The notes below the pieces were generated by a model. It had not been told where the DNA came from. It searched no databases and was given only the letters and a program-made list of their open reading frames with translations. Below are positions 16,525 to 47,040 of a stretch of DNA of 64,000 bases, one piece after another. Position 1 is the stretch's first letter. Each line of letters begins with the position of its first letter. The stretch is from an uncultured bacterium (GTDB taxonomy: Bacteria > Oederibacteriota > JAAXVQ01 > JAUVAV01), in contig CAZVUO010000001.1 in the NCBI GenBank assembly GCA_964630235.1, forward strand, positions 254,588 to 318,587, read 5' to 3'. A program made the position numbers and the translations under genes.

Positions 16525-16594
16525 GGCCAAAACCCCCTTTAACCAAAAAATATTGAGCAAGGCGCCATTAAGGCGTATTTTTCCGTTTGCCTAA

Positions 16595-18646: not shown

Positions 18647-18650
18647 GAAA

Positions 18651-18678
18651 CCCGGCTTCCCGTTTCCGGGAAACCGGG
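18651..18678. terminator. GC-rich hairpin between the convergent lnt copy 1 and giant gene 2. It is a canonical intrinsic terminator when read on the minus strand.
   Basis: CCCGGCTTCCCG-TTTC-CGGGAAACCGGG forms an 11-bp stem with one mismatch. On the minus strand the hairpin is followed by TTTCTTATTTT. Confidence 0.6.
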
Positions 18679-18701
18679 CTCCTGTGTTCACTCCGTCCGT
18701 T

Positions 18702-21700
18702 CTAAGCCGCGCTGCCTGTGGTCTTCAGCTTGGGCTGTTTCTGGAGCGGCGTCACGTCCAGCTTAATGCCGATGCCCAGCCCTTCCAGCCGCTTGATGAT
18801 CCGGCCCAGCTTGTAGTCCTGGGTCAGCGCCCGCGGCACCACCTCGGGGGTCAGGGTCACGGCCAGCTCGTCCGCGTACCTTTTGTAGGTCAGACTGATG
18901 TTGAAGCCTAGGAAGCCCAGCACCTGGGCCAGGTCTTTGGTCAGCGCCAGTTTTTGATCCATGCTGGCATCCGATTCGGCCACGGTCAGCAGGTGTTCCA
19001 CCGTCGCCCGGATCGCCCGGTTCCGCATGGTCTCCGACACCATCTGCTCGGTGCCGGCGATCCTCAGCCCCTTGACCGCCTTGGTGAAATACGGATCCGA
19101 CAGCAGGGTGGGTAGCATGATCTTCCGGTAGGTCTCATAGCTGGTCCCATACTGCGCGGCGAAGCTCTTCCTCTGCTCGAACTCCCTGGTTCCCGAGAGC
19201 TGCGCGATCCGCCGCGCGTCCGCTTCCATCCGCGGGTTGGAAGACCCAAACGCGGCGTGCGCGATCTGCTCTTCCACCGCGGCAGACGGGTTCAGGTTGA
19301 ACGCGATGGCTCTGGCCCGCATCCAGGTGGCCGCGCCGGCCAGGGCCAGAATCACACCTGCCCCAATTGCCAGGGCGGGCAGCACGCCGCTGGAAAGACC
19401 GAAGACCAACCCCACGACCACTGCCATGGCGATCCCGGCTCCAACCATCTGCTGGGCCATACTGCGCACCGTGAGCAGCGGCCTCTCGGCCTGCCGCAGG
19501 CGGTCCTCGCCGGCGATCAGGCCCAGAAGTTGCTGCTGCACAGGGGTTTTCTGCAGTTTGCGGTACTCGGCGTAGGAGAGGCCGAACGTCGCCTCGAACG
19601 CCTCCTCCTGCAGCCGCCGCTCGTCCCCCGCCGGCAGGCGCTGGATGTCCACGGCTTTGGCTTTCATCAATCCGAAGCCCGTGTTCTCCAGCTCCCCGGC
19701 CGCTTCAGTCAGGTCCCGCAAATCCCGCTCGCCGTATTCGCGTCCCATAACCCCGCGCACCTGCTGGTAAATAGCACGCAACTTTTCGTCCTGGCTCGCC
19801 AGCGCCTTGAGGTTCTCGCCGTCGGCCACGAATTGACGGAGGAATTCCGTCAGTGCGTTGCTGCCAAATTCCTTGAACAGACGGTGCTGGCTCAAGGACT
19901 CGGTCAGTGAACGCGCGTGCGTATCGTCAAACAAACGCATGGACACCGCCTGCAGCGTTTGCTTCAGCAGGGTGTCGCTGAATTTCTGGTCCAAGAACTG
20001 TATAGATCCCCGATCCACCTTCAATCCCGCTTTATCGGAAACCGTGGGTTTGGCGGCGGTCTGGCCCAATTCCACCCGGTCCATGCTTTCCGTGGCCTTC
20101 GGCACCAGGCTCAGGATCGCGGCCAGCATGTGCATATAGCCGTAGTACCCGGCTGACTTGTCCGCGGCCAGCTCGATCTGGCGCTCGGCCAGCAGATCTT
20201 TCAGCTCGGCCACGGCCTTGGTGTCGTCCAGAGAGCCGGCCATGCGCCCTTTCCACTCCTCCACCAGCGTTCTGCCGGCCCGCACGGCCTGGCTCGCCAC
20301 TTCCGCCTCCCGGGCCTCGGGTTCGTTCACCACCACCCGCTGCTCCAGCGGCACCCGGACGCGCAGCACGTGCGGCACCACCTCGCTGTTGACCATGCCG
20401 ATCGCGCTGCCCACGCCCCCGGCCAGCCCTGCCACCAGGAAGGTCGGCAGCAGGCCCAGCGCCGCGCCGGCCACTTTGCCCAGAGAGGACCTGCCCGGCG
20501 TTTGCGCCTGCACGCGCTCCGCGTTCCCTCTGGCCAGTGCCAGAGGCCCTAGCTTCGTCAGCACGGGCGCCAGGACGGTTCCCAGCACCATGGTCCCCAT
20601 CATGGCGGCCAAGGGCAGACCGGCCAGGCTCATCGCCCCGACCAGGGCCGCGCCCAGCACCAGTTTGGTCGCCGTGGCGGGCACCAGCCAGCCGTTCTCC
20701 ACCTTGAAGAAGGCCACCAGCGCCGACGATCTTTCAATGGTTTGCAGCAGATTTTGCCATCCCCGGCCCATGGATACACCCAGCCGGTGCAAGGGGGTCT
20801 GCTGGCTCAGCTCGGCGCCGGCCATCTGCTTGATCGCGGCAGCCTGCGCGGCGATCTCCGTCCGGGCCAGGGTCTCGGCCGGCATGGCCTGCAGGGCCTT
20901 GAAGCTTTCGCCCGTGACCAGACCATAACGGCTGGCCAGGGACTGCGCGGCCGCCACGTTCTCCTGGATATAAGTCCTCGCCTGTTCCAGATTCATCGTG
21001 CGATCCTGATAGGTGATGGTTTTGGCTTCGTCGGCCGCCAGTTCCGGCAGATAGGCGCTAACGCGTTCCGCGTTCTGCAGGGCCTGGTAGTACTGGGTTT
21101 GGGCCTGAGCTGGCTGACGCCAGATCAAAGCGGCTTTTTGTATTGAGGTGCTGGCCTGATCATACGCCTGCAGGAAGGTGACATCGGGTCCAAAGGTCGC
21201 GGCCAGGGCTGGTTGTACCCAGTTATCCCCATATTGTTTAATATAGCCGGACACTTGCTCCGTGTGGACTTGACGCCAGGCCTCACTGTTGAAGTTGGCC
21301 TGCATTTCCCGCAGATTCATAACCGCCTGCTGGGTCAGCATGGACCTGGCGTCGAACTGCGACCACACCGGAATTTGGCGCAGGAAAGCGCTGCCCGCGT
21401 TCAGACCCGCCAGTTGGATCGGCTTCGAGACCTGGGGCAGCTGGTCCGTGGCGAACACGACACCGCTCCCGGCCGCAACGTTGTTCTGGCTGGGCATGAA
21501 CGCCAGGTTGTATTGCAGTAATTTAACAGCTTCCGTGTAGGTGGGCGCCATAGCGATCCGCGCCGTAGCCTGATCCACGCCCAGGTTAGAGGCCGCCATG
21601 GCCATTGCCGCGGTGTCATAGGATTTTATTTCGCCCAGGAAGCGGTGGCTTTCCTGCCAGGCCTGCTGGAAGGACTTGACCTCGGCCCGGCTGGGCACGC

Positions 21701-24700
21701 GGTTGTTCACCACCGCTTCCTGGATCGCGACCGCCTGGTTTTGCAGCTTGGCCGCCTCGATGCCGCCAGGATTCTGGGACAGCACATTTTCCATTAGGTG
21801 CAGGCCCACGGAGTACATCTGTTTATACTTCAGGGTCCCGCCTTGGGTGATATCGGCAAAACTGTAATTTTCCATGGCCACGGGGCTGGCTCGCACCACA
21901 CTGGAGGCCCGCGCGAGTTCATAGTAGTTCCCCATGCTTTGCAGGACGAGCCGGAACCCTCCCCGGAAGAAATTCTGCGGCAGGATGGATTGCATCAGCA
22001 CGCCGCGCCACACGCTCCGCGCCTGGCTCAAACTGCTCAGGAAAGTGCTCTGCACGTAATTCCGGTTGACGATTTGTGGATCCAGGGTGCTCTGGAGCTT
22101 CAGCGCCAGATCCACATTGCCGCTGTGGTCATTTAGAATTCGGCTGAGTTGCCCGTCCAGGATGCGTTGGACGATTTTGTTATCAAACCGCGGGTCCTGC
22201 ATCATGTTTTTCAGGGGCTCAATCACGATTTTGTCCTTGAAGGTGTCCTGCACGGCGAAGCGCGTGGAATTGCCCACCAGTTCGGACTGCCGGTATTCAC
22301 CGTTCAGTTTGAGGGCGAGACCGAGCTGGTGCTGTTGCGTCAAATCCAGCTTGGACAGATCGAGGGAGGATAAAATCTTGGTCAAGTTCCCGAGGTCTGC
22401 GCGGCCGTTGGCTGCGGCTTCCCGGCCCCACAAGGTGGTGACTTCGTTAGCACGCGCCGGGTTTTTCATGGTTTCCAAAGTCGCTTTCACCGCGCTCAAG
22501 TCCACCACCGCATACCGCTGGGTGGCCCAGGTGCCCTGAGGACCACCCGGCCTTCCGGAGCGGAGCAGGAGCTGGGTGAACATATCAGCCGTGAGGCGGT
22601 GCGCGCCCCGGGCCACCAGGGTCAGATCAGCCTGGAAATTCTTGCCCACCGCGGCCTGCTCGTTGAAAATGCAGACCTGCCCCCGGATCTTGCCGATGCT
22701 CTCCACGATGGTCTGAATACCGGCTTTGTCAATCTGCACGTAATCCAGGCCCCTGACCCTGCCATTGAAGGTCTCGGAGGGCATGATCCTGGCGCTCACG
22801 GGAGTGCTGCGGCCGCTGTTGAGCAGCTTGATGAATTCCGCGCCCATGTTCTTCGGCACGAAATAGCCCGCACTGCTGGCGCTGATTACGCTGACCGTGG
22901 GGATGCCGCTCACCTTGCCGGTCATGGCTTTTATATACTGCGATACAAGCTGCATCTGGGCCGTGGGGTCGGCTTCAAAGACCAGAGCGTTGCGCCTCAT
23001 CTCGATCACGGACTTCAGGACCACGGCGTCGGCCGCGGCGAGGTCGGTCAGGATCTTTCCGCCCGTGTTGTAGATATCGCGCTGCAGGTCCAGAAGCGAG
23101 GTGCTGAGGTGGCGGGACCCGGACCCCACCTTGCTCTTCATGAGGTTTTCCAGGCCCGCGATGGTACCCGAAGCGCCCACAATCTGCGCCCCGAAGTTGC
23201 CGGCATACATGGCCGAGAGCGAGGTCTGCATGGTGGTCTGGTTGACCCGCACCGCGGCGTAGGGATCCAGGCCGGCCTTGCGCGCGGCCACCACCTGGCC
23301 CACGATGTCATTGCTGATCTGGTCGAATTGGATTTTGCCCAGATGGTCCACCGGATAGATGTAGTCGCCCTTGACCGCATAGGCGTTGAGCTCCCCGGCC
23401 TTGCCTTGCTGGCTAAAGAGGGTTTTAATGGCCGACGACACGTCCGCACCCTTGAACGTCTTGAACGCCCGCTGCGCCGCGCTGTTTAAGAACACCCCCT
23501 GCTCCGTGATCACGATGGTCTTGGCGGCGCGGAGATTGAGTTCGGTCACGCGGGCATTGCTCAGGTCGTTGACGCGCACCACATCAAACTCACCCAGCCG
23601 GGCTTTACCGGTCTGGCGGAAGGTTTCCGCGATTTGCCGGAACCCAGCCTGGTCGAATTTCAGGGTCTTGAGAATCCCATCCACGGACTTGACCTGGGCC
23701 TCGGTAACCGCTGAAATCTTGCCGCCATGGATGGCATTGGTCTGGCTGGTGGTGGGCATATGCACCTCATCAATGCCCACCAGATTGGAGCGCTTCAGCG
23801 CCAGGTTCAGGTCCGCGTTACGGATGGCATCGTTGCGCAAATGAGCGCGCGTGGTATGGTCAAAGACCAGGGTCCTGCCGGGGTCGTTCAAGGCTTTGAT
23901 CAGTTCGCCGAAATTTCCGGTTTTTTTAGCCTGCGAGTAGAGTGTGTTGCCGTCTACCAATTCCATGCCCATGGCTTTGGCCAGATCCTGATGCGTCATC
24001 TTGGTCTTAAAGGCTTCGTTTAAATATTTATTAATGGCCGGACCATCGTCCACCAGCAGTTCGGCGCGCATGGACTGGCCTTTCAGGATATTCATCATTC
24101 CCGGGAAAAGAATGAAGGCCAGGGTTTTTCCGCCGCCGGCCCTCAAGCCCACGTTGTTGCCCTGCAGGAACTCGGCGATCATCATTTTTTGCGAGAGCCG
24201 CAGGTCCGAGTAGCCGGTCACCCGCTCCACGACCTGTTTCATGTAGCGTTCCACCAGGGTGATGTCCGCGGCTGAGCCCTTGACGAGCTTGCCATCGCTG
24301 ACCAGGCTTTCCCGCAACTTCATGAAAGCGTCAAAGAGCGCCTTGCCGCCCTGCCGGGTCAGGTCGGCTTTGGGAATTTGATCCAGAACCGACTTCAGCT
24401 GGCCGTCATATTGTTTCGCCAGGTTGTTGTATTCAGCCAGCCTGCCGTTTTTGGCCGCGTCGTTGTACACTTTCTCGTAATGCTCCTTCCAAGCCTGTTC
24501 GATGGTCTGCGTCAGGTCCGCGTTGCCCAAGGCCCGCTCGTAACGCTGCAAGTTCTGCACGTCACTGGCGTTGAGCTTCAGCTGCTGCAGCTTGGCCTGG
24601 TAGGAGGCCTCGGCCTGGCGGGCGTGGGTCCCCGCCTCGGTTACGGCCCGACCGCTGGCTTTGAGCTGGGTTTCGGAAGCCCCCTGGCGTTTGAGCAAAG

Positions 24701-27700
24701 TATGGTTGTTACGAAGTTCGATCTGCACGTCCCTCAACTTCAGCATGTTTTCGCGCAGGGTCAGCAGGTTGTTGACCTCCTGCTTCGCGGACTCGGCATC
24801 GAGCCGGTTGTTTTCCCGCACCTTGTTCTCCACCCGTTGTTTCAAATCCATGATCTGTTTAATGTCCTGCGCCCGGCCGATCTCGATCTGCTGGCTGGTC
24901 TCGGCTAGGCCTTTCCTCAGAAGAATGGTTTCGGGCAGCATGGAGGTGACCAGACCCTTGACTCCGCCGCGAGCCTGCCAGCGGGCCGCCAATTCGCCCA
25001 CCCCGCGGCTAGCCGCGGGTTTGATCTCAGCCAAGCGTTCCACCCGCGCCAGTCGGTTGGTTGCCGCCTCCAGAGCCCGGGCCGCGGAACGCTGGGCACG
25101 CAGGGACGTGGCCTCGTTGTACTTGACCACTGCCTGGCTATGGGCCTGTTTGGCCGTCAGGAGCTGATGGGTGCGCTGGAGCAAGGCCTTGACATTAGCC
25201 ACGGACCCCTGGGACAGTTGCTCGCTCAAGGCGAGGGGCTTGGCTGGGGTTTCCGCACCGGATGCGGTCTTGGCCTGGCCCTGAATCTCGGCGAGCGGCT
25301 GGCCGGCCTTGGCCTTGCGCAGGTTCAAGAGCATCTCGGCCGGGTTTTGGGATGTCAAAAGCTGCTGCAGTTCCTGTAATGATAAATTCCGGGACAACTC
25401 ACGGAAGGTTTGGTTCCGTGCGCGGCCGTCGCGCATGCCGCCGTCCCGCAGGGCCTGATCAAAACGTTCGCGCAGTAGGGATTCCAAACCCTTTGCGACA
25501 TCCTGGCTCGACCGTCCCTGCAGTTCAGCGACCTTGTTCAAGGTGCGTTGATTGGCCTGGTATTCGGCCTGGGCCCCCTGACGATTCAACAGCTTGCTGC
25601 TGCCGCCGCGCTGCAGGTCAAATATCGTATCCAGGGCCGTTTCCAATTGGCCGGGTGTTATCTTTCCGGAAATCGGCTGGACCTGGCCTTTCAAGCCCAA
25701 CCGCTCGGCCACCGCATTGTGCATCTCCTTGCCGAGGTTGATGCCGTTGTGCTCGGCCAATTGATTGAAGAATTTTTGCGCCTGCGCCTGCATGCCGTTC
25801 TTGGCCAGTGACTGCAGGCGTTTCATGCCCTTTTCTCCCTGGAAGAGTTGGCGTACCAATTCGATGGCCGGCGCCTTGCTGGTCATGGCATCCACAATGG
25901 CCTGCTTGAGCATGGCCCGGTCGCCCCTGCCCGCCATTTCTTTCAGCGCTCTGTTCAAATTCCGCTCCAGGGTTCCGCTCCCATCCTCTTTGAGCAGGAG
26001 GTCTTTAATCCTGGCCTGGGTTTCCTGATTCCTGGCTTTTGCCAGGCTTTCCTGGGCCTGTTTGAAGCTCTCCTCCGCTGCCGCCATGCGGCGCTGGACC
26101 AAGCCCTTATTCCGAAGCATGCTGCGCACATCGCCGTCCGAGGTCAGCTTCTCGATCTGCGCGTCCAGATCCGCCAGCTCCCGTTGCGCCCGGACAGCGT
26201 CCACCCTGGCGTCCACCTGCCGCAATTGCTGTTCCAAACGTTCGGCCCGGGCTTTCAGCTCGGCGCGCTGGGGCTTGTTCAGGGTTTTTCGGGCCAGGGC
26301 TTCGGTGGTCTGGGCCAGTTCGGCTCGCACATTCACGCCTTCCAGTTCGGCCTTGGCAATCATGGCTTCAGCCCGCAGGTTGCGGGCCTCGGCCTGGAGG
26401 GACTCCAATTTGCTATCCAAAGCCTTGCGCAGGTCTGCGTTGGCCTTGGTCTTGGCCAAATCTTTGATGGCTTGCCGGGTTTCGGCCATTTGTCCCCGGT
26501 TTTGCTGGGTCCGTGTCTGGGTGTCCTGAATTTTAGCCTCTGCTTTCAAGCGCGCCACCTCGGCCTCGGCCTGTAAGCGGCCAGGCTGCGTCGTCTGGGC
26601 GCTCGCTTTTTGCACGGCGAGTTGAACTCGTACTTCGGCCAAGGAGACGCCCAGGTTCTGGGCCAGGGCCTGCTGGGCTTTGGTGACTTCGCCTCTCAGC
26701 GCGGAAATCGAGCCGCGCGTGGCCTTGGGATTGTTCATTGCCTGCTGCAATTTCGCCTCGGCTTGTGCCACCCGGCTCTCTAAATTCCTGACCGCGGCGT
26801 CTTTTCCGCCCACAGTCCGGCTTTCCGCGCTCCGCGGCACACCTTGGCGCGTTTGCGGCCTCGCCTCGCTTTGCGGCGCTCGAGAAGATTCTGCCGCGGA
26901 CCGTTGCGCGGTCTCGGGCTTGGCAACCGCCGTCTCTCCCATGCCGGTCCGGTAGGCGCCTTCCATCGCCGGCCTGCCGATCACCGCTGAAGTCGTGAAC
27001 CTGGCCGTGGTTGTGCCGGTCAGAACAGTTTTTACCGTCTGCACAGCGCCTTTCACGAATTCGCTGGTGGCTTTAAACACCCGGGTGTTACGAATGTCCG
27101 CGGTCTTAGCCACCCCGGCCTTGGTGGTGTAGTGCACCCGTCCCTGCGCTAAATTAAGCATGGCTTTTCCCGCGTTCCGGAAAATATCAATCTGGTGGAT
27201 GAAGAAGGCCTTGGCAAAAGCCAGGGCAAAGGTGGCCGCGCGAGCGGCCATACTGGACATGACCTTGCCGGGCTGAATGGCCTTATTGAGCGTCTGGGTC
27301 GGGACTTGGCCCGAACCTCTGGCGGTTAAATCGCTGAGGCGGAACTGCCTGGATTGCAGGAGATTCGCGACCTTGGCTGCGCCGCCTGTTTGGCGCAGCA
27401 TGCTATTGAGCGTGCCGTGGTGATTCTGGAATTTAAGTTCCCCGAATTTCATATTATTGATATGCTGTCCCAGTTCCCGCGCCGTGAAACCCGGCTTATT
27501 CAGCGCCGCATCAATGACATCCCCAATCTTCTGTTTGGCTAATTCGCGGGGATTGGCCGCCTGCCGCTGGATATGCTCCGTGATCTTCTTGAACACCATG
27601 TCCTCGAAGAACCGCTGGGCCTTGGCCCACATAGAGCGCATCATCTGGAAAGCAAAGACCACGCCGATCACGCCGCCCGCGATCACGGACACGTTCTCCA

Positions 27701-30700
27701 CCACCACCCGGGTGCGCGAAATGTCCGCATCCAGACTGCTGATGTTCGCCAGACGGTTGATGCCGTCCGCGATCTTGTTGAAGGGTTCAATGAAGAATGT
27801 ACGGAACATGTTGCCCAGGCCGTTGAGGATGGCGTCCTTGGCCAGGAGCACCATGCCAAAGACCGCGAAAGCCGGGCAGACGGCCGTAAGGGCAACCAGC
27901 ACCACCAAAGCCAGATTTTCGCCCAGGGTCTTGAACAGGACGGCATACCCTATGGCCAGGCCGCCCATGATCCGGCCGAAGGTGCTGTCCAGGGCGAAAT
28001 AGTCCTCTGCCATCTGGGTGTATTGTTCGGCTAGCCACAAAATGCCCATGCTGGCGTATTTCAATATGAAGTCCACCGGGATAAATATTTTTTCCACCAC
28101 CCATTTAAACCCGGCCAGGGCCTGTTCGCCGATGGACTCCCCATTGTACAAGTAGAGCCCGACCGCGGCCGGCCAGACCAGGTAATTGACGGACCAGACA
28201 AAAATAAATTCCACGGCCTGCCAAGCTGCGGTCAGGATAAATTCCGCCGCGTAGACCACGGTCTGGATCACCGCCCAAGCGGCCAAGACCAGCGCGCCCA
28301 CCGAATAGACCATGCCCTTAAATTCATTCCACAGCTGGTTTAATAAGCCGCCGGTATAGTGAATATTCATGGCATCGTAAAGGCCGTTTTGGGTGTCCCA
28401 GAAAGAGACCCAGGCTGTGGCCACGCTGTCCGTGAACTTGTGCCAGCCGTTCTTGACCTGTTGCCAGCGTCCAGTCTCGCGCTCACCGGCCGGTGTGTAA
28501 ATTTCCTTCACACCCCGGCTGTCCAGCATGACCACTTTTCCGTCCACCAAACTCACCTGGACATCCTTGCCCAACTGCACTTGGCTCGCGCCGACCACCA
28601 CCGTATTGTTTCCCTCCAGCCGGCCGCCGGCCGTGACCACGGTGGAGATGTTCACGTTGACCTCTTCGCTCAATGCTTTCGTCCGCGTATAGGTATACAC
28701 GCCCGTGTCCGTGCGGCTGAGGGAAACGTTCTCGCCGGCCGCGTTTTTACCCTGCAAGGTGAAGTTCCGCTCGCTCTGCGCCACAGTGAAGACGCCGCCC
28801 TCGCCGGGCTGAATGCGGTTGCCGGCGTCGAGTTGCCGATTTTGGGCGTTGAGGTACTGCTCCTTCATACCCAGTTCGTTCAACTGCCGTGGCGTACCCG
28901 TGGCTACAAAAGTAAAGTTGTTGTCCTTGTCCAGCGTGGCCACGCCCATGGCGCCGTTGCGGGTCTTGCCCTGCATAGACATAACGCCATTACTCTCAAC
29001 AACTGTATATTTCCCATCCGAACCCATAATCTCCTTGCTGGCCGAAGCTCCTTGGTTGTAGCGCTCTGTCAGGTTGTGCTCGCGGATAACCGTGGCCTTG
29101 AGCCCGAGCGCGTCCAGTTTTTTTAGATCCGCCGTGGCCCCGAAGCTGTAGCTCCCGTCTTGGGCCAGGGTGGCAAAAGCCGTGACACCGTCATTTAGCA
29201 CGCCCTGAAGCGTGCGGGAACCGTCCGCGCCCTCCACAATCGTATAGGTATTCCCCTCCCCGGCCTGGATGGTCCGGTCGCTGCCGGGCGCCGGCCCCTG
29301 ATCGGCGCCAAAGAGCCGGGCCAGGAATCCGGGCGTGGCCTCTTCCTTCCAGCGCGCCGCGTCTTTTTGGTTCTGCTCCGTGAGCTTGGTGCCGTCCAGC
29401 CCCAGGGCATCCAACTGAACCTTGGTCCCCGTCGCACCGTAAGTGACCTTGCCATCATTGGACAAGGTCACAAAGGCCGAGGCGCCGTTGGCAGTGGCGC
29501 CCTGTAGGGTCATGGCATCGGTGCTTTCTACCACCGTGTATTCGTTGTCCTTGGCCAGGATGGTGCGCCGGCCGTCATATCCTTGACGCGAATGATTGCG
29601 CAACTCGGTGGCATGCAGACCCAGACGGTCCAGCTTGACCAGACTGGCCGTGGCGCCGAAACTGAACTTGCCGGCCGCGTCCAGGCTGGCGAAAGCCACA
29701 GTGCCGTCAGCCAGCTTACCCTGGAGTGTATCCGCGCCGTCGCTCTCCACCACGGTATAGCGCCCCTCGCTGTCTGCCTGGATCCGACGGGAGTCGGTCC
29801 CGGCCCGGTCATTGCGGTTGGTGGTCACCAGTTCGGTTCCCCGCAGGCCCAGCCGGTCCAGCTTGCCTTCCTGAGCCGTGGCGCCAAAGCTGTATTTGCC
29901 TGTCTTCTTGTCCACCGTGGCGAAGGCCGCGGTGCCATCGTCAAGCATTCCTTGCAGCACGAGGGATTGGCCGCTGTCCACGACGGTCCATTTTCCCTGC
30001 CGCCCCTGAATGGCCCGCGAATCCGTGCCGGCCCGGTCCGCGGCGTTGGTGTTCACCAGGTAACTGCCCCGCAGCCCCAGGGCATCGAGCTGGGCCCTGG
30101 TGCCCGTGGCGCCGAAGGTATATTTGCCGTCCGCGCCCAGGGAGACGAAGGCGTCCGCGCCGTTGGCTGTCTTCCCCTGCAGGGTATACGTCCCATCGCT
30201 GTGGATGACCGTGTATTTACCGTCAACCGTGGATTGGATCCGGCGCGAAACCGTGGCCCCGCCCCGGTCCGCGCTGTTTTGGCGGACCAGCTCTCCTGCC
30301 CTCAAGCCGAGCTCGTTCAGTTGCGAGACAGTGCCCGTGGCGCCATAGGTCAGGCGTCCCTCGGCCGAGAGGGTGGCGAAGGCATCTGCGCCGTTAGCCG
30401 TCCTGCCCTGCAGGGTGTAGACGTCCTGGCTCTCCACGGCCGTGTACTTGCCGTCCTTATCCTGGATGAGACGCGCCCCGGCCTGGCCCTCGGCTGTACT
30501 GTTCCGGAGGTCCGTAGCCCGCAATCCCAGGGCGTCCAGTTTCTCCAGGGAGGCTGTGGCGCCGAAGGTAAAGTGCCCCTCGTTGTTCAGGGTCAGGAAG
30601 GCTAGCGTACCGTCGGCCAGCTTGCCCTGGAGCGTCCGGGTTTCACCCGTATCCAGCACAGTATATTTGCCCTGGTCCGCGGCGATGAGCCGGGAATCAG

Positions 30701-33700: not shown

Positions 33701-36700
33701 AGGCCTGGGTTTTGCCATCGTCCAGCAACCCCTGGAGCGTATCCGTGGTGCCGGACTCGACGACCGTATAATTCCCTTCTTTTTCCTGGATCTGCCGCGA
33801 ATCCTGGCCTGTCTGGTCCTGGCGGTTCAATCTGACCAATTCCGATGCCCGCAACCCCAGCGCATCCAGCTTTTCCGCCCTGCCGGTGGCGCCGAACGAA
33901 AACTTGCCGTCCTTGTCGCGGGTCACAAAAGCCTGGGTGGTTCCGTCGTCCAATTTTCCCTGGAGGGTATACGACCCGTCGCTTTCGATCACGGTATAAT
34001 TGCCTTTGGCGTCCTGGATCTGGCGCGAATCCGTTCCGGCCTGGTCCGCGCGGTTGTGGTCGAGCAGCTCACTGGCTTTCAGTTTAAGTTCGTTAAGCTG
34101 GGCTTCAGTCCCCGTCGCACCGAAGGAACCCTTTCCGTTCTCGTCAAGGCGCACGAACGCCTGCGCGCCGTTGGCGGTTTTGCCTTGCAGGGTATAAGAG
34201 CCGTCCGACATGACGACCGTATACTTCCCGCGTTCCGCCAAAATCTCGCGGGCCGGATCGCCCGCGACGTTCTCCTTGCGCAACTGGTCAATTTTCATGC
34301 CCAGTTCCCGAAGCTGGGCCTCGGTGCCCGTCGCCCCGTAGGTGTAGATGCCTTGCTGATCCACGCTGGCGAACGCCTGCGCGCCGTTGGCGGTTTTGCC
34401 GATCAAGGTCAAGCCCTCGGGTTTCACGCCTACGGTATAAAGCCCGAAACGATCCGCGAGGATTAACCGGGCCTGGTTGGCATCCTGCTGGTTCCGGGCG
34501 TACGCGTCAGCCGCCCAATATCCGCGTGCCTGCAGCACTTCCTGGGTGGCCCGGATCTGCTGCAGGTTCCAGGTAGAATGATTCGTGGCTGGATCTGTAA
34601 CATAATTCTCAATTGTTTGGACTAAATGCTGCTTCTGCATCAGCAAATCGCTGGTCGTGACCGTCCTGGAGATTTCGCCCTCCACCCGCCGCATCACGAC
34701 ATTCCAGTGTACGGCTGACTGAATCCTGACGCCGATCCCGGCAGGTTTATCATAAGCCGCGATCTTGAGGTTCAGCTCCTGAACCACATCGAAATCCATG
34801 TTTTCCATCAGCCCGGTGCTCTTTTCTTTGTCCTGCTCCGGCGTGGACCGGTCGTCCGTGTCGCTGGTCAGGAGCACCCGTCCGTTCATGCTGAACCGTT
34901 CTTCCTTGCCGGTCTGCTTGTCGGTCAGGCTGAATCCCTGCCCGGGTAAAAGCTTGAACACGACGTTCGGGAACTTCCCTTCCTGCAGGGCGCGCAATGA
35001 CTCGGGCTTCAGGTTGCCCTGATGGTCGTACAGCAGTGCCGCCCCGCCTGTGTCCTTGAAGATCACCTTGGTGCCGGTCAGCTTTCCATCCTGATAAAGC
35101 GACACGCTGACGCGTTCGCCGGTTTCGCTGTACTGGGTGAGGGAGTAGTTCTGAGCCTTTTCATCCAGGAAGGTGACAATGCGGTCATCCGACAGGTCCA
35201 CCCGCCGCAAGACACTGTCCTGGTACTGTGCAAAATAGCCCAGGGTTTCACCGCCGGCCTGGAACTGGTTCCTGCCGATCACGCTGTAGTTGCCGCTTTG
35301 GAAGTCCGCCTCTCTTCCCACGAACACCGTGCCATCCGGGGCAATATAGGCGGATTTTCCGGCCAGGAGGTCCGCGATGACCTGCGCGGTTTGGGGATTC
35401 ATGCCCAGATTGGTCAGGGTCTCCAACTTCACCGCAGGCAGAAGTTCGGCCGCGATCATGACGCCATCCTGCTTGATAAAGGCCTGTCCCTGCTGGAACA
35501 CCAGGGTAACCACCGGCAGAGCGAACTGCGCCGCTGGATCCCCGGGACGGCTGAAGAGGGTTTCCTGATCCAGCCCGCGCGTGCTGAGATCCAGGTCCAC
35601 TTTGTACAGCACGCCATTTTCCTGGTGGAAGGCCACGGCCTTGTTGTCCGCCGTGATCTGGTCCGACTGAACCATAACGCTCCGCAAGCCCTTCTGGCCG
35701 CCGATCTCCATCTGCACGGTCACGCGCTGATGGAAGCGGGAAAAATTATCCTCTCGCGTGAAAGTGGACAGCAGGCCTTGTTTGTCAGAAACCGCGAGCT
35801 GGTCCAGGGTGATCGCGCCGTCCGGCCGGTTTTCGTCCGCCGGTTTAAAGGAAAGCGTGACCGTCACGTCGCCTTCCTTCTGCTGCACGGTCACCCGGCC
35901 ATCCAGACCGCGGGACACCGTGCCCACACCCTCCAGGTACAGCGTCTGACCGGACCGCAGTTTGCCCAGGCGGTCATTGATTTTGGCGGTCAGGTTTTCG
36001 CTCAGTTGGTTGACCGCCGCGGCGTTGATCATCCCCTGTTCCACGGCATTCAGCCGCACCAAGAGGGCGAGATTAGCGGTTGAAACCGCGGCCACGCTGG
36101 CATAACTCAAGGCAATGGCAAAGGCTTTCGTTGTCAGCGCTTTGTCGGTCGCGCCGCTGGTTTGCAGGATCTCGAGCACCCGCAAAGCAGTTTCCATTTT
36201 CACGGGCCCGTCGGGAAGTTTTCCCAACGCATCCATGCTCAAGGCCAGGGTTTGCAGGCCGCCATCCGTGGCGCCAAGCGCCAGTTGATAATCAGCGGCC
36301 CGCACCATGACCGGCGCGTCCTGGCTGAGCCGCGCGTGTGCAACCGCACTGTCGAGGCTGGCTTTGGATTGATCGAGATTAAAGACGTTGAGTTCGGCCG
36401 TGGCCAATGTCTTATAGGCCAGTTCGATCACGGTGGCGGATTCGCCCTTGGCGGTGACTACGTTGACATAGGCTTGCGCCTGCTGCATCGCGGTCAGGCC
36501 GAGGTTCAGGGCGAGCTCTTTCAGTTTGGCCTCGTAGGCAGGCGTGCCGGCAACCAGGCCCATCCCGGTGAGATAGTCCTGGTAGCTGCGGTTTTGGGCC
36601 AGGACCGAGGGATCGGCATTTTCAGCCATTATCCGGATCTTGAGTTGCTCTCCGCTCAACTGCGCGGATTCCTTCACGTCAAACAGGAAGCCGATGACCC

Positions 36701-39700
36701 GCCCGGCGGCGTCCTTGGTGTAGCGGCTTTCCTTGGTCAGGGTCCACTGCCCATCCGAACCCTTGGTATACACACCGCCCAGTTCGCCCAAGCGGTTGAA
36801 AACAAAAGCCTCATTGCTACCGGCCGGCCGCAGGGCAATGATGCTGTTCCAGAAATTGCCGACCTGCACGTACTCCATAGCACCCGTCACCTGACCGTCC
36901 TTGGACAAGGTGACCTGATAGGTCTTCCCGTCGCTGCCCTTGACATCCATCGTGGTGACCGGGCGGCCCAGGTCGTCTGTTTGAATCGGAGCCTGCAACG
37001 TCACGGTTTTGCCGTCAACCTCAAAGGAATAGGTTGCGGCCGCGGTTTTGCCCGGTTCAAAGGCGCCGAGCGTCATGATTTTCGTCAGCAACGTCGAGAC
37101 TTTCGGAATTTCCGCGCCGGGTTCATACGCCCCCAGCGAGAATAGTTCCGCCAGAATGGTCTGGAAAAGATTGTGCTTGATCGGCACCTCCACCTTGCCG
37201 CCGGAGGCGTCCTTGGTCTGGTCGGGAGTCAGTCCGCGCGGCTGGCCTTGGTCAGCTGCTTCCTCAACCGCGCGCTGGGTGGGATCCACGTTTTGGCTGG
37301 GGCTGATCAGGCTGGTGCCCTCCCCAACTTGTTTATCGCTGTAGTCTTCGGGAGGGACGTCCAGTTTCCCGGTGGGATCGGTCACCGTGCTCTTGCCGGC
37401 CTGCTGGTTGGACGCACTTGGCCGGAATGACCCCAAATCCAATTGGTTTTGATTTCCCACGGCCCGCTCCAACGCTTCGGGCGTTCCGGTAATTTCCACG
37501 CCCTCCGGGCCCTGCAACTTCACCATGCCGTCGGGCATGGTCTGCTCTTTAAACTGCTTCAGGTCGAGCTGGCCGGCGGCGTCGGTCAGTTTTTCCAAAG
37601 CTTGCGGGCTTCCACGGATGGATAAGCCTTCGCCGTTCGTCTGGGTAACTGGAAGCTGGTCGCCCTCGACTGCCTGCAAGCGGCTCACGTCCAAGTTGTT
37701 GCCGCCGGCCATTGCCTCGCTCAGACCCGCAGGCGTCGCCGTGATCTGCACGCCCGGCGCTTCATAGGTCACTGTGCCGTCCGCATTCTGCCGGGCGGAC
37801 ATTTTACCCAGATCCACCTGACCGTTGGCGTCCATGACCTGGTTCAGGGCGGCCATGGTACCCTTGACTTCGATCCCGCCGTTCTCCCCTTTATATAATG
37901 TAGCGTCTTGGCCACCGAACGGGTCCCCGCCCTGGCCGGTGCCGTCGTCCGCTGCGCCCGCCGCCACATCGTCCTTATTTCTATCCTGCCCGGTTTGGCT
38001 GCCCGCCTCTCCCTCGGTCACCGTCTTCCCGTCCTCATTCAGTTCCAGACGGTCGCCCTCCTTTAAGGCCTCCGCGCCGCTCCGTGTTTTTCCGTCCAGT
38101 CCACCGGCCTTGCTCAGTCCCTCGAACCCCTTGCTGATATCAAGGTCCGGGATGCTGAAATCGCCGGCCATCAGTGCATCGCCCATTTGGTCGCCAGCGT
38201 AAATGTTGGCCGTGACCCCATCCCCAGCTGGATTATCCCGGAAGGTCGTGGTGATATGCTCGTTCCCGATCTGTTCGGTCACGGCCAGCATCTGGGTTTG
38301 TCCGGTTTGCGGATCAACCACTTGGCTCACAGCCATAACCTGGTTGCCGTCCAGGTTTTGGAAGGTTTCCACTTTTAACTCATAATCCCCACCCGCCGGC
38401 AGACTGCCTTCACGGGTCAGATTCTCAACGGTTTTGCCCAGGAGTGACTCCGCGGGGATCATATCCGCTTTTACCGTTGTGCCCCTAACCGCCGATCCTT
38501 CAGCCGGCGTATACTTGTCCGGCAACGCGCCGGTTTGTTTCATTTCCTCGATCTGCTGGCGGTGTTCGGCCAGGTTCATGCCGATCTCCTCGGACAACCC
38601 TTGGAAATCCGACATGGCGCCTTCCCCCGCGCCGCCGCCCTGGCCTTCGCCGCCCTCTCCGCCTTCGCCTTCGCCGCCGCCTTGCCCGCCGCTTCCAGCC
38701 GAAGCGTCCTTGCTTTCGATTTTAATCTCGTCATCCCTGCGTTCGATCTGCGTGCCCTCCTTGCGCAAGCCTTCCTGCGAAATGGTGGTGCCCGGCAGCC
38801 CCAGGTCCTTGACCGCGGCGTCCTGGGGTTGGTCCGGCACCTCCATTTCGTTGTCCCGGTTCTGGTTGTCCAGGCTGGGGCTGCCCAGATCTTCGCGCAC
38901 GGTGTCGGACTGGACTAGCGGTTCGTTTTGCACGTCCGGCATCTGGTCCGGAAGCATCAGGTTGTCGGGCTGCTTCTCCGGCTGGGGTATGGGCTGTTTG
39001 TTGTCCGGCCTGACCTGCTGGTCAGTCCGCGCCGGCGACTCGTTTTTCTGCTCTTCGGTTCTGCTGGGAATGCCGCTGGCCGTCCTTCTTTGTTCCTGGT
39101 TGGATTGCTGTTGATTCTGCTGGTTGGGATTCTGCACCGAGGACTGGCCCGCATCCAACTGTTGATCCAATTCAGAGGTTGGCGATTCAGTCTTGGTCAT
39201 TTCGGTCTCTTCATTGATCTGAGCGCTCTGATCCGTGGTCATGGCGAGAAGCGCTTCGCCGCGAGCCGGAGACTCGGTTTTGGATTGGCCGGTAGCCGGA
39301 CCCAGCTTTGGGGCCTCGATCAGTCCTTCAAGCCCGCGGACATTCCCTGCTGCCGCGCCCAGCACATCCTTGGCCTGGGCCAAATTGTTCACGGTCACGA
39401 GCGACTTGCCGCCGGGAACGGTGACGCCACCGGTGGGAGAGATCGCGGTCGTGAATTCCGATGGCAGCCAGGTCCACTGCCCGCTCTCCAGGGAGAATCC
39501 CGGAACCATCTTTTCCGCGAATGTGCCCCACGTGTTGGCCACGTGGTATTTTTGCATGTCGCCCCATTCCTTGCCGCTCTTGGTCTCGGCCGGAGCGTAC
39601 TGCATGACTACCGTGGAAACGGTCTTGGCCACCACCGGCCGCACGAAGGTCATCATAAAGAGTCCCACATTGTCCATGGGGGTCATCAGGTCGCGGATGG

Positions 39701-42700
39701 AATTGTCGTTGAGCACCTGGTTCACGGCCCCGAGCCAACCAACCAGACCGCTGGCCATGGCCCCCCAAATGGCCCCGGCCCGGCGGTCCTGCGCAGCCTT
39801 GTACCCGTTTTCTTCCTTGCTGTTGATGAACAGGGACTGCACCAGAAAAGCGAGACCGGCACGCATGGCGGTCGAGGTCATAAACTGCACCAAGCCGAAC
39901 CCCTTGGCCACCCCAAAGGACTCCTTCACGGAATCCCAGAGACCCCCGAAAAACCCTTTTTTATTATCTCCCATGATCATTTCCGTGAGGCCAGCGGCCA
40001 GCCAGTCCGCCACAATGCCGATCAGCGGCATGTAGAACAAGAGATCCTCGGGCAGGATTTCGTTCAAGACCTGTATGATGCTTTCCCGCAGAACCGCCTT
40101 GAGAATCGCTTTGAGCACGTTGGTGGTCAGGCTTTTAATTAGATCTGATATGGTGGTAATCACCAACTTGACGCCTTGTTTGATCAATTCCTTGGCCACG
40201 TCCTTGATGGCGCTCGCCCAGCCGCCCAGCGCGGCCTTGACAATAGAAAATAAGACGTCGAGCGCCGGTGGCAGGGGGAGGAAGGTTTGGATGAGTTCGA
40301 TCAGGATGATGATAGCCAGCAAAATTGGCGCGGCCGAACCGAAGCTCACGATGGTGAGCACGATGGAGATGATGAACATGAAGATCTTGCCGAAGGTGGA
40401 ATTGGCCAGTTCGCCGTACTCCTGCATGGTGTCCCAGCTGAAATTCAGCAGCGCGTCCACGATCTTGTAAATATAATAGGCGGGGTTGGCGAAAATCATG
40501 AACATTTCCATGAAGCTTTCCAGGCTGGGGTTCTCGAAGAAATCCAGGATGGCCTGCGGTCCCTGGAAAATGAACATGACGATGGCCAGGCTCAGGTAGT
40601 CCGTGCACTCCGGGTCCGGCGGCTCCTGTTCCGGCGGTTCGGGGTGGCCGTACATGCGCGCGATGTCCCAGGCCGAGCCGGAAGCGACGTAGTCCGGCGT
40701 CCGGTCTCCGCCTTCCTGGCTGATCTCCACTTCCGGCATGGCAGGCACGCGCGACTCCTCGGCCGGCAGTTCCAGCAAGGCCGCGAGCGAGCCGAGGCGG
40801 GTGCCGCGGACTTGATCCATTTGGGCTTTGAGCCCCTCTCTTTCTAACTGGACGGCGGGAACAGCCTGGTTCGCGCTGATCTGTTCGGGCATGACCAGCG
40901 GCACTGAGCCGATATCCGCCGGCAAAGCCACGTCCGCCAGCCCGGCCGGCTGCAGCCCGTTGTCCGGCAGGCTCAGGGAATCCGGCAGTTCCGCGTCCGG
41001 TCCCACAATCATCGCCAGGCCGCGTTTGAACGCTTCGCTCAATTCGCCGGCGAGATTCGTTTCGCGCGCCGGGGACGCATCCGTACCTGGCAGCACATTC
41101 ACCAGGAGGGCTTCCTGGCGCAGCTGCGTCACATCCGGCAGCGTCCGCACGCCGGCCGCTTCCACCCCGCCGGTCTCGTCCGCTTCGTTGGCGTCCGGTG
41201 CGGCGGTCTCGGTCTCCTTCGGTTCTGCATCCTCCTCCACCATCCCCGCTTCCGGGCCGACCAGGGCGATTTCAGCATCCTCCGTCAGCACGGTGTCCGT
41301 GTTTTCCACCGGCCGTTCGCCTTCCGGCAGAAGCTCCGTCTCAGGCCCCTCGGTCTGGGGCTGTTCAATCAAGTCCGTCAAGATCACCGAAGGGGTTTCG
41401 ATCTCCTCCGGCGTTTCCACTCCCGCGTTATGGAGCACGTCCAGGAGCGCCGACACGTCCACGTCCTCTTCTTCCACCGCTCCGCTTTCGCCCGCATCCT
41501 CCCGGTCCTCACCCAGCAGCGCGAAGAAGTCCTCCAGGCTGGGGCCTTCGGCCTCCGCCCCTTGGTCGGTCTCTTTCTCCTGGTCACCCAGCCCCAGCAG
41601 CCGCAGTACTTGCTCTGGCAGCTCGACCGTGCTCTCGTCCCCCTCGTTGGCTGTTTCCTCAACCGCCTGCTCGCCGCCTTCCTCAGGCTCCTCTGTGACC
41701 ACTGTCTCCCCGCCCTCAGGCTCTTCTTCCTCGGGTTGAATCCCTTCCGGCGGTTCTATGGCCTCTTCCCCGGCCACCTGCGTCTCGGTCGCGTCCGTCC
41801 CGGGCCGGGCGTCCTCCGGCAACGCCGTCTCCCCGGGTTCCGGTTGGGCCGCCGCTTCTCTCGGCAACTCTGTCTCGCCGGTCTTCGCGGTGGTTTCCTC
41901 CTTCAACTGCTCATTCATCCCCAGCAGGGCCAGAAATTGCTTGGTCAGGTCAGCCAGCGTGGTCTCGGCGTTGCTTTTGCGGTCCGCCTGCTCCGCGTCC
42001 TGGACCTGTGTCTCCCCGCCCTGCTCCGCGGGCTGTTCCACCGGCTGCGTCTCGGGCAGCCTGCTTTCCGCCGGCTGTTCCGGCGGGGTCACGCCTTCGG
42101 CGCCCGGTTCCACTTCAGTCTCCGCCGGCTGCGCGTCTGGCATGGTCTCCTGCGCCACCACTGTCGTTTCCGCGGTCTCGGGCTGCTGCGCGGGCGCGAT
42201 TTCCCTGGGCAGCATTTCCGCCGGGATCGGCAGGCGGGCCAAGTCCGCCGTTTCCGTCAAGCGGCCTTTGCCGCTCAAACCATCCAGACTCAAGCTCAGA
42301 CTCAACGGCCCCTGGCTGCTGGTGGCCACGTCGGCCAGCAGGCTGGGATCAGCGGCCGGCTGGTCGGCGGACTGTTCCTCGGGCTGGGTGCCGGCCGGTT
42401 GCCCGCCTTGCGGCAAGGCAACGTCCACCCACTGCAGGGCGGTTTCCACGCCCACGCCGGACATGGTTTTTTCGGCAATGGTTTGCAGCGAAACCGTGGA
42501 CAGCAGATCGCCGTATTCCGCCTTGAGCACATTCAGGCGGGTGGTCGCCACATCGGTTTTCAGGCTTTCAGGCGAAGCGACGGGCAGGAACGCATCCGGC
42601 TGATTTTGATCCAGGGGATTGGCGGGCCGCAGCAGATCGTTCTGCTGGTTGTAAATGTCCTGGCGGTTGTTGTCAAAACCGTAAGCCAGGATGGTGTCCA

Positions 42701-42839
42701 TGCCGGTCATCGTGAAGACGAAAAGCACGGCCAGCACCAGGGAAATGACTTTGCGGTGCTGTTCTCTTACCAGCCGCCAGGCTTTCCGGCTCAGGATGAC
42801 TGCTTGCGACCACGCTTGGATGGGGTTCATATGCCTCAC
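18702..42839 (-). CDS. Giant (8045-aa) multi-domain membrane protein with an embedded SecA-like ATPase.
   Basis: A single uninterrupted ORF of 24138 nt in the supplied track. The track start is GTG at 42839. ATG at 42830 (M4) lies behind AGAGGTGAGG and is the more likely start. Domain evidence is given in the findings. Confidence 0.9.
   Translation of the reverse strand: [8045 protein letters not shown]
22500..24230 (-). other. SecA-like motor domain (NBD1, PPXD-like insert, NBD2) inside giant gene 2 (aa ~6204-6780).
   Basis: [17 protein letters not shown] (Walker A) compares with SecA [30 protein letters not shown] compares with SecA [42 protein letters not shown]...[22 protein letters not shown] compares with SecA YIVKDGEVIIVDEHTGR...[39 protein letters not shown] compares with SecA NQLRGRSGRQGDPG. 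Confidence 0.75.
28690..34470 (-). repeat. 26 in-frame tandem ~74-aa (about 222-bp) units inside giant gene 2 (aa ~2791-4717).
   Basis: I counted 26 occurrences of the core x-[22 protein letters not shown][ST]-F-G-A-T-G-T-x-x-Q-L-[DN]-x-L-G-L in the translation. Spacing measured on one unit is 75 aa. Units are diverged, roughly half of positions being conserved. Confidence 0.9.
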
Positions 42840-42990
42840 CTCTGAACCAAGCAGCCCGTTTGGCCTGCTCGGTTATGATAAAAACTTTCCAACCGCAGTC
42901 AGCGGGCCGCGGCATTTCGCGCGCGCACAAATATATGAAATAATGCGATATTCGGGCGCGTGGTTATCCAGCATAATAAATTTCAGCTTA

Positions 42991-43019
42991 AGTATATCAC
43001 TGGTTTTTAGCCGAGTCAA
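42991..43019 (-). promoter_or_regulatory. Sigma70-type promoter of giant gene 2 with an extended -10.
   Basis: Minus strand reads TTGACT - 17 nt (CGGCTAAAAACCAGTGA) - TATACT. The predicted 5' UTR to the ATG at 42830 is about 150 nt. Confidence 0.6.
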
Positions 43020-44802: not shown

Positions 44803-44872
44803 GGGAGAATTATAGCACAAGGGTCCGTGTTTGGTGGAGGCCGACCCGGACTTAAGTTCCTCCCAGGGGCCC

Positions 44873-44995
44873 CATGGAGCCCCCCGGGCAAAGCCCGGGG
44901 TACCAACTGCACCTCTCGTTACCTCCTCTGGGCGACATCCCCGGAGCAACCATTCCGCATTCACCCCCAAGGCAAGGGGTGCCCTGCGGAGAGGA
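44873..44995. repeat. Conserved intergenic element, copy A (paired with 50014..50119).
   Basis: 83 of 94 aligned nt are identical to copy B. It contains the hairpin CCCCGGGC-AAA-GCCCGGGG. It lies between the divergent lnt copy 2 and the transketolase N-subunit gene. Confidence 0.7.
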
Positions 44996-45210
44996 TGGCC
45001 GGGGTTCCCTCCCGCAGCAAAAATCATATCCCGCAATTCCATCCCTGGAGCGGTCTTTGGGGTCGCTGAAGCCCGGGGAATTGTGCGGTGGGATCGTTTT
45101 TGGACTCCCTCCGCTTTTCGTTGGGGCGTCCCCGGCCAGGGGCTTTTAACGCTTGACAAAGCCCGGAGGGGTCTAGTACGATTCTCCGCATATTTTCCGG
45201 AGGTTTTTCC

Positions 45211-46044: not shown

Positions 46045-46065
46045 TTTTCGGCGAGGAATTGTTCC

Positions 46066-47001: not shown

Positions 47002-47040
47002 GATTTTCCAGCCTGCTGCTTTCCTGCTAAACACCCGCCA

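Follow-up and report, generated by a model that had tools for sequence, protein, structure and literature searches.

A giant membrane protein from an uncultured bacterial lineage with a predicted, divergent SecA-type motor that escapes Pfam

How do bacteria produce proteins that are thousands to tens of thousands of residues long, move them out of the cell and put them to use? This question is raised by a 64,000-nucleotide stretch of contig CAZVUO010000001.1 (assembly GCA_964630235.1, from an uncultured bacterium; hereafter the window), in which a single open reading frame (ORF) on the minus strand runs for 24.1 kb. A preliminary description made from the letters alone read this ORF as a single genuine gene whose product is a mosaic membrane protein carrying a SecA-like motor. 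Giant proteins of Omnitrophota and some Actinobacteriota that combine many transmembrane (TM) regions with a divergent SecA DEAD/preprotein-binding domain were described in 2023 by West-Roberts et al., who call proteins 'large' above 10,000 residues and 'giant' from 30,000 residues upward and who propose self-export for the SecA domains of the giant Omnitrophota proteins (bioRxiv 10.1101/2023.11.21.568195); the same protein class was re-found by Nielsen & Lui in 2026 (bioRxiv 10.64898/2026.06.07.730766). Here, we assign the architecture and the family of the protein encoded in the window with high confidence, and we weigh more guardedly what its motor may do.

The ORF listing and translation gave a stop-free frame of 8,045 codons from a GTG with one terminal stop, and the whole stop-free frame around it spans 8,056 codons. 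When the bases of the 24-kb ORF were shuffled (n = 200), the longest run without a stop had a mean length of 260 codons and a maximum of 460, bearing out the earlier claim that a frame of this length is beyond chance. GC content at codon positions 1, 2 and 3 was 0.63, 0.43 and 0.77 and was steady across every 800-codon slice, indicating one reading frame under coding constraint over the full ORF. At the third position the ORF had a GC content of 0.74-0.87 compared with 0.75-0.89 in adjacent genes. We considered and rejected a horizontally acquired island: the lower GC content of 1-43 kb is due to codon positions 1 and 2, that is, to amino-acid composition, and the third position matches the neighbours. 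Translation probably starts at the ATG at 42830 (M4 in numbering from the GTG, which we use throughout), because AGAGGTGAGG stands 3 bases before this ATG and the GTG has no such site; the product would then be 8,042 residues long. The ATG is preceded by GAGGTGAGG. A promoter-like site is located farther upstream in a 340-bp AT-rich intergenic spacer. With this site, the ribosome-binding site and a terminator-like hairpin, the giant gene looks like its own transcription unit.

An ORF of this size could also be an assembly chimera or an inactivated pseudogene. A look-up with the adjacent apolipoprotein N-acyltransferase (Lnt) returned 17 Logan contigs from other sequencing runs. Six of them were compared (one from DRR358088 and five from SRR29900433-444), and window positions 12772 to ~28650 were matched at 99.96-100% identity. 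Judged by their lengths, these independent contigs reach ~34180 and take in the final ~5,150 codons of the gene (the 3' ~15.5 kb). They end inside the repeats of this gene and of a second giant gene described below, as expected for short-read assemblies. The break within the repeat array at ~34183 favors a chimera insofar as residues ~1-2885 are contiguous in the source assembly alone; for this 5' ~8.6 kb, most of the repeat array included, we relied on the source assembly and on co-linearity with orthologs. Against a chimera or pseudogene, the ORF runs for 24 kb without a stop or frameshift, and its codon bias is uniform from end to end. The repeats are just 60-75% identical at the DNA level, and Tandem Repeats Finder misses the array; such divergence makes collapse or mis-joining unlikely and indicates that the array is old rather than an assembly artefact. 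Furthermore, orthologs from different lineages reproduce the order of parts at 25-48% identity, arguing against a misassembled fusion of unrelated genes. We judge a chimera or a pseudogene to be extremely improbable. Ortholog conservation and independent assembly thus uphold the reading of a single genuine gene with a mosaic membrane protein as its product, and the giant ORF is an intact, conserved gene that appears to be separately transcribed.

Toward its C-terminus, the protein contains a module that is predicted to be a motor of the SecA type, with its catalytic residues intact and a clamp resembling the PPXD. Its motifs comprise Q6217, a Walker A sequence (GGGKT, 6235-6239), a Walker B sequence (DEVH, 6357-6360), SGT at 6557-6559 and Q6756/R6760/R6763. 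In an alignment of 33 family members, Q6217, G6237-K6238-T6239, D6357/E6358/H6360, T6559, Q6756, R6760 and R6763 are kept in 30-33 sequences, and the other motif glycines and S6557 in 24-26. An insertion of ~197 residues separates motifs II and III, at the position of the PPXD in SecA. To our knowledge, SecA is alone among SecA and superfamily 2 (SF2) structures in having a domain of PPXD size between these motifs. The AlphaFold2 model of the motor, built with 18 family members, has two alpha/beta domains (mean predicted local distance difference test score (pLDDT) 73.7) and, after NBD2, a 49-residue helix of low pLDDT (about 50-79). In a Foldseek search of the PDB with this model, ranks 1-11 were all SecA or SecA2 (E 7.7e-14 to 2.3e-9). 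The best match was 1tf2 (E 7.7e-14), with 752 aligned columns of a 772-residue entry, and DEAD-box and other helicases began at E 4.8e-8. Alignment of the family profile to E. coli SecA with hhalign gave probabilities of 67-83% (E 5e-5 to 9e-6) and was co-linear from Walker B through the PPXD and motif III into NBD2. The best alignment (83%, E 9e-6) paired positions 157-589 of the motor tile with SecA 206-588, where it ended; a second covered SecA 200-395 (E 5e-5), and a weaker co-linear match paired tile 41-105 with SecA 100-154 in the Walker A region. The earlier SecA-like call is upheld by these structure and profile methods only: Pfam SecA_DEAD, SecA_PP_bind and SecA_SW and NCBIfam SecA all failed to recognize the motor, and HMMER with Pfam alone could not confirm it.

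Table 1. Features of the giant gene and its predicted product. Positions are those of the window; residues are numbered from the GTG.
Feature	Residues	Window positions	Strand	Basis and remarks
Promoter-like site		42991..43019	minus	TTGACT, 17 nt, TATACT, with TG before the -10 (extended -10); read by eye
Shine-Dalgarno-like AGAGGTGAGG		42834..42843	minus	3 nt before the ATG at 42830
Whole giant ORF	1-8045	18702..42839	minus	8,045 codons from GTG; 8,042 residues from the probable ATG at 42830; stop codon 18702-18704
Basic tail (net +5) and single hydrophobic anchor helix (31-53)	1-53	42681..42839	minus	conserved in P0177
Acidic E/A/L/P/T-rich low-complexity tract, net charge -115	60-740	40620..42662	minus	composition
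Hydrophobic block 1, several hydrophobic helices	745-1080	39600..40607	minus	hydropathy; inside the 30%-identity alignment with P0177
G/Q/E/S/P-rich linker with GGEGEGGEGGEGQGGG run	1110-1420	38580..39512	minus	translation, composition
Conserved domain within the 'no motif' region 1420-2780	2148-2781	34497..36398	minus	ortholog alignment
~74-residue repeats, 25 clear and 1 degenerate copy	2796-4760	28560..34454	minus	repeat count, structure model
Hydrophobic block 2, about 5-6 helices; boundary of acidic and basic halves	4840-5070	27630..28322	minus	hydropathy; conserved in L007, L008
Basic (net about +59) Ala/Leu/Gln/Arg-rich helical stalk	5080-6150	24390..27602	minus	composition
Divergent SecA-type ATPase (predicted)	6190-6960	21960..24272	minus	motifs, AlphaFold model, Foldseek, hhalign
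Helical region	6960-7370	20730..21962	minus	conserved in close orthologs
Hydrophobic block 3	7385-7475	20415..20687	minus	hydropathy
Soluble segment between blocks 3 and 4	7480-7790	19470..20402	minus	conserved in orthologs
Hydrophobic block 4 (hairpin)	7798-7850	19290..19448	minus	hydropathy
Conserved C-terminal domain ending ...TGSAA	7850-8045	18705..19292	minus	ortholog alignment
Terminator-like hairpin, 17-bp stem and T-run		18646..18683	minus	19 nt past the stop codon

Outside the motor, most of the parts listed in the preliminary description were recovered (Table 1). The proposed N-terminal anchor is present as VISLVLAVLFVFTMTGMDTILAY, the acidic tract was found (15% E, 12% A, 10% L and 10% P), the run reported from a Q/N/P-rich tract is a Gly/Glu run at about residue 1388, and hydrophobic block 1, block 2 and two more blocks were all identified. 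By Kyte-Doolittle hydropathy, the anchor and the four blocks hold about 15-20 hydrophobic helices in total. The 26 repeats of 74 residues survive as 25 clear copies and a degenerate one, spaced 72-78 residues apart with one gap of 99. A stretch called an ~800-residue coiled coil proved shorter and patchier: only residues ~5350-5600 and ~5900-6110 of the stalk are Pro/Gly-poor and highly charged, as in a coiled coil or a single charged helix, and the stalk gave no strong signal of heptad (3.5-residue) periodicity.

For the repeat array, a defined fold is predicted with high confidence. An AlphaFold model of three units had a pLDDT of 91.2 and a predicted template-modelling score of 0.84, with each unit forming a four-stranded meander followed by two helices (beta-beta-beta-beta-alpha-alpha). 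A Foldseek search of PDB and BFVD with this model found no significant neighbor; PUR-alpha and OspA appeared at E 0.03. Pfam found no RHS/YD, BIg, cadherin-like or RTX repeats in the giant protein. Four further repeats of ~42 residues, beta-beta-alpha-like and recognized by eye (for example ...GVEITGTPEALERAVGNQNQLDL...), lie ahead of the array at residues 1640-1810 (window ~37410-37922). The conserved domain just before the array is 26-35% identical to sequences from P0001, P0177, L007 and L008 and had no Pfam or PDB sequence match, and the C-terminal domain is 27-37% identical to P0002-4, P0016, P0034/P0177, L007 and L010. Pfam searches of both halves and of seven tiles, with E up to 10, returned sub-threshold noise alone (DUF6897, GAD-like, Hydant_A_N). 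The whole giant protein had no match in NCBIfam or, by phmmer, in the PDB, and the remaining 5,000 and more residues outside the motor and the repeats had none in Pfam, NCBIfam or PDB sequences.

The relatives of the protein were found through its motor. An exhaustive HMMER search of representative sequences with residues 6150-7349 returned 52 relatives, some of them 43-49% identical. A word-indexed protein search with residues 4720-8045 and with the motor alone gave no match; this tool misses the family, and its result is not evidence of absence. Syntenic homologs, which had been proposed as a check on the ORF, exist as co-linear orthologs of 6,942 and 6,679 residues. The longer one (P0001/P0053) has in order an anchor, a low-complexity tract, the conserved middle domain, ~75-residue repeats, a hydrophobic block, a stalk, the motor and hydrophobic segments, and its C-terminus ends ...TGSSA. 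The shorter one (P0177; NCBI MCK5240840.1, 'hypothetical protein') aligns to residues 22-1605 (30% identity), 1918-2135, 2276-2752 (35%) and 7120-8045 (36%). The motor is also present at 42-45% identity in four GTDB species genomes, one of them labelled Candidatus Firestonebacteria. In three of these it lies in stop-free frames of at least 4,268, 5,211 and 5,250 residues that run off the fetched loci, and in the fourth a frame of at least 1,773 residues fills a 5.3-kb contig end to end. In loci L007, L008 and L010 the similarity extends beyond the motor to the middle domain, the repeats, hydrophobic block 2 and the C-terminus. More distant motor homologs (phmmer E 1e-13 to 1e-47) are proteins of 2-7 thousand amino acids (kaa), most with hydrophobic segments before and/or after the motor, and named examples come from Candidatus Omnitrophota, Elusimicrobiota/Endomicrobiia, Chlamydiota and Deltaproteobacteria. 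Among them, four Candidatus Omnitrophota proteins of 4-6 kaa (P0017, P0021, P0025 and P0031) are tied to the motor by phmmer at E 1e-13 to 1e-20, and P0017 and P0025 have no match to PF07517. As for the host, the transketolase B subunit encoded at 46066-47001 is 88% and 76% identical to proteins of 'candidate division FCPU426 bacterium' and 69% identical to a Candidatus Firestonebacteria protein; judged by this marker, the host, a bacterium of soil type, belongs to a lineage related to candidate division FCPU426 and Candidatus Firestonebacteria.

Like the proteins of West-Roberts et al., the giant protein is encoded by a very long ORF, has an N-terminal region without recognizable domains and numerous hydrophobic segments, and carries within it a rapidly evolving motor of the SecA type that has a preprotein-binding insertion and in which neither a wing nor a scaffold could be demonstrated. 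Unlike them, it has 8,042-8,045 residues, below both the 10-kaa and the 30-kaa cut-off, comes from an FCPU426/Firestonebacteria-like lineage, and has a motor that escapes PF07517 (SecA_DEAD), as do the homologs scanned. It has its own type of 74-residue repeat and no glycosidase, peptidase C39/S8, dockerin or TSP3 domains; more broadly, Pfam found in it none of the domains of the Archaeovorin type (glycosyltransferase, glycoside hydrolase, peptidase, methylase, NUDIX) or of the Dockerin type (dockerin with TSP3). Linked through its motor homologs, the giant protein very probably belongs with this class as a variant and is not categorically new. The preliminary description had stated that no characterized protein has its combination of parts. 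This holds in that none has been studied experimentally; the combination of size, TM regions and a divergent SecA was, however, published in 2023.

Three better known systems offer further comparisons. The motor shares with canonical SecA (B. subtilis 1tf2, E. coli b0098) two RecA-like domains, the Q, Walker A, Walker B, III and VI motifs and a PPXD-sized insertion, but is only ~13-15% identical to it and has DEVH in place of DEVD in Walker B. Whereas canonical SecA is a soluble protein of ~900 residues, the motor is an internal module of an 8-kaa membrane protein in which a scaffold, a wing and a C-terminal domain could not be demonstrated. The accessory Sec system (SecA2/SecY2) of Gram-positive serine-rich-repeat adhesins similarly devotes a specialized SecA to one very large repetitive surface protein, and SecA2 (4uaq) is the second-best structural match of the motor. 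In that system, motor and cargo are separate and are accompanied by a SecY2 channel and glycosylation genes, whereas here the motor shares one chain with its presumed cargo; we saw no SecY2-like gene in the window, and the secA and secY of the genome lie outside it. Finally, the RTX adhesins of Gram-negative type I secretion systems (T1SS), such as LapA, SiiE and MpIBP, resemble the giant protein in having thousands of residues of tandem ~70-100-residue modules as an acidic rod. They differ in their Ig-like (BIg) modules, their C-terminal T1SS signal and their lack of an ATPase or internal TM blocks; the repeat of the giant protein is beta-beta-beta-beta-alpha-alpha.

What might a motor do in such a chain? 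Net charge is about -229 over residues 60-4720 versus +79 over residues 5080-6800, with the switch at hydrophobic block 2; this block divides an acidic N-terminal part of ~4,700 residues from a basic C-terminal part of ~3,000 residues. From this positive-inside asymmetry and the need of the motor for ATP, we infer that the ATPase and stalk (residues ~5080-7380) are cytoplasmic and that the acidic, repeat-bearing ~3,700-4,700 residues lie outside the inner membrane. The giant protein could then act as an accessory SecA permanently fused to its own cargo. The tethered motor would bind unfolded polypeptide in its PPXD clamp and, powered by ATP, drive very long segments through the inner membrane, by way of SecYEG or of the protein's own hydrophobic blocks. 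Its cargo could consist of segments of other giant envelope proteins or of the same protein; in the second case one copy would most plausibly export another, since the ribosome reaches the motor only after the cargo. Once exported, the acidic tract and the array of 26 rigid modules would form a long surface fiber with which the cell contacts or attaches to particles or other cells. We advance this export mechanism, with a membrane-tethered, cargo-fused motor and a surface fiber, tentatively and at somewhat less than an even chance. Several points weigh against it. Hydropathy and charge are the whole basis of the topology. The motor is C-terminal to the presumed cargo, making strict co-translational self-export in cis impossible, so that export in cis would have to be post-translational or the motor would have to serve other copies or other giant proteins. 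The role in adhesion as a fiber is argued from architecture, and adhesin, enzyme and carbohydrate-binding domains were not found anywhere in the giant protein with Pfam, NCBIfam or PDB sequences. The scaffold, two-helix finger and wing domain of SecA are not demonstrable, given the low-confidence helix and the end of the profile alignment at SecA residue 588, and Pfam SecA_DEAD recognized neither the giant protein, with E up to 10, nor any homolog scanned, with E up to 0.01-0.1.

Other accounts of the motor have to be set beside a cargo-fused exporter. It could be a nucleic-acid helicase or another SF2 remodelling ATPase in a membrane-tethered scaffold for RNA/DNA handling or signalling. Its Walker B is a DExH, common in helicases, one homolog has a weak Helicase_C match, and sequence-only searches point the same way: in the PDB, phmmer with the motor tile returned DDX18 alone (E 0.73) and a profile search with an 18-sequence alignment returned weak SF2 helicases alone, the matches being DDX18, Dicer, DinG and DDX17 (E 0.4-0.9). 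Foldseek, by contrast, ranks SecA above every helicase by 5-6 orders of magnitude and over nearly the full length, and the SecA profile alignment passes through the PPXD insertion, leaving a helicase improbable. A more substantial challenge comes from export in trans, with the motor dedicated to other giant envelope proteins and the rest of the chain serving as anchor or scaffold. Accessory SecA2 systems each serve a single huge adhesin, and SecA2 ranks second among the structural matches. About 2 kb downstream, the same strand carries a second giant gene for a repeat protein of at least 5,500 residues that appears to be secreted, with a signal peptide, RHS/YD-like repeats and 54-57-residue repeats. 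Large ORFs also follow the orthologs elsewhere, directly in L007 (at least 2,213 residues) and with a homolog as the second gene downstream in L010. However, the downstream partner is not conserved: the second giant gene has no match in the L007 and L010 loci, and the proteins downstream in those loci have no homolog in the window. We regard a dedicated exporter in trans as doubtful.

The chain might go further than the cargo-fused exporter and be a complete secretion machine in one polypeptide, independent of SecYEG, with cargo, a conduit formed by the hydrophobic blocks and an engine in the form of a SecA-type ATPase on a stalk. We think this unlikely; if true, it would make such proteins a widespread, Pfam-invisible group of 'auto-translocating' envelope giants in Omnitrophota, Elusimicrobiota, Chlamydiota, Firestonebacteria and FCPU426. 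Alternatively, the protein could be a delivered toxin or contact-dependent weapon whose hydrophobic blocks form pores or translocate in the target membrane. It has several such internal blocks, its neighbor is an RHS-repeat giant gene, and giant proteins have been tied to predation and prey adhesion (West-Roberts et al., bioRxiv 10.1101/2023.11.21.568195). Yet searches with Pfam, NCBIfam and PDB sequences turned up no domain of a toxin, peptidase or glycosidase and no RHS core in it, and its N-terminal anchor and the conserved hydrophobic hairpins near its C-terminus suggest that it stays in the membrane of the producer. A weapon of this kind is, in our view, quite unlikely.

The genes around the giant gene yielded several observations of their own. 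The second giant gene occupies window positions 1-16590 on the minus strand, with a likely start at ~16524. No stop interrupts it over at least 5,530 codons, and because it continues past the left edge of the window it is absent from the ORF listing. Its signal peptide (MITITGQERMHFGLWNKTAWLGTLALLGTLLLFVGVSMSSAASS) and RHS/YD-like repeats are followed by ~24 repeats of 57 residues and ~38 of 54 residues. Ten plus-strand ORFs at 952-16239 were dismissed as genes, being frame artefacts antisense to it. The large conserved protein downstream of the orthologs (L007 15891-22529; L010 19281-22280) has an N-terminal hydrophobic helix and the motif ...VYVHDLHCNYEVQ....

Two inverted lnt paralogs, 54% identical, flank the giant gene at 16985-18646 (plus) and 43183-44802 (minus). 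A functional link to them was rejected: no lnt was found in the 10 kb downstream of the L007 and L010 orthologs (the downstream side being the one covered), and inspection of its translation found no lipobox in the giant protein. An apparent Lnt fusion of 1,283 residues (43183-47034, minus) is over-extended, since only its last ~539 residues (from M745) are Lnt; its first ~744 codons look antisense to plus-strand split transketolase genes at 45211-46044 and 46066-47001. To the right, the window continues as ordinary chromosomal sequence, with lnt, split transketolase, GAF, Memo, NHL, OmpA-domain, Por_Secre_tail, UbiE, GT2, LPG-synthase and transaldolase genes. In a minus-strand cluster at 53336-54361, 54457-55395 and 51491-53320, the Por_Secre_tail (type IX sorting) protein adjoins an OmpA-domain protein and a third protein that has weak, sub-threshold outer-membrane-family matches alone (Toluene_X, UPF0164, PorV). 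This cluster suggests a secretion route of the type IX kind in the FCPU426-like host.

For the study of very long bacterial proteins, the locus provides a comparatively small (8 kaa), fully assembled example from a phylum without cultured members, with its 3' ~15.5 kb independently re-assembled. The predicted motor is well delimited (residues 6190-6960), keeps its catalytic residues and could lend itself to study apart from the rest of the chain, and the 74-residue repeat is a confidently predicted module without a solved structural relative. Finally, the locus indicates that motors of this kind can go wholly unnoticed by Pfam and NCBIfam, and counts of 'SecA_DEAD-containing giants' made with hidden Markov models would therefore underestimate the class.

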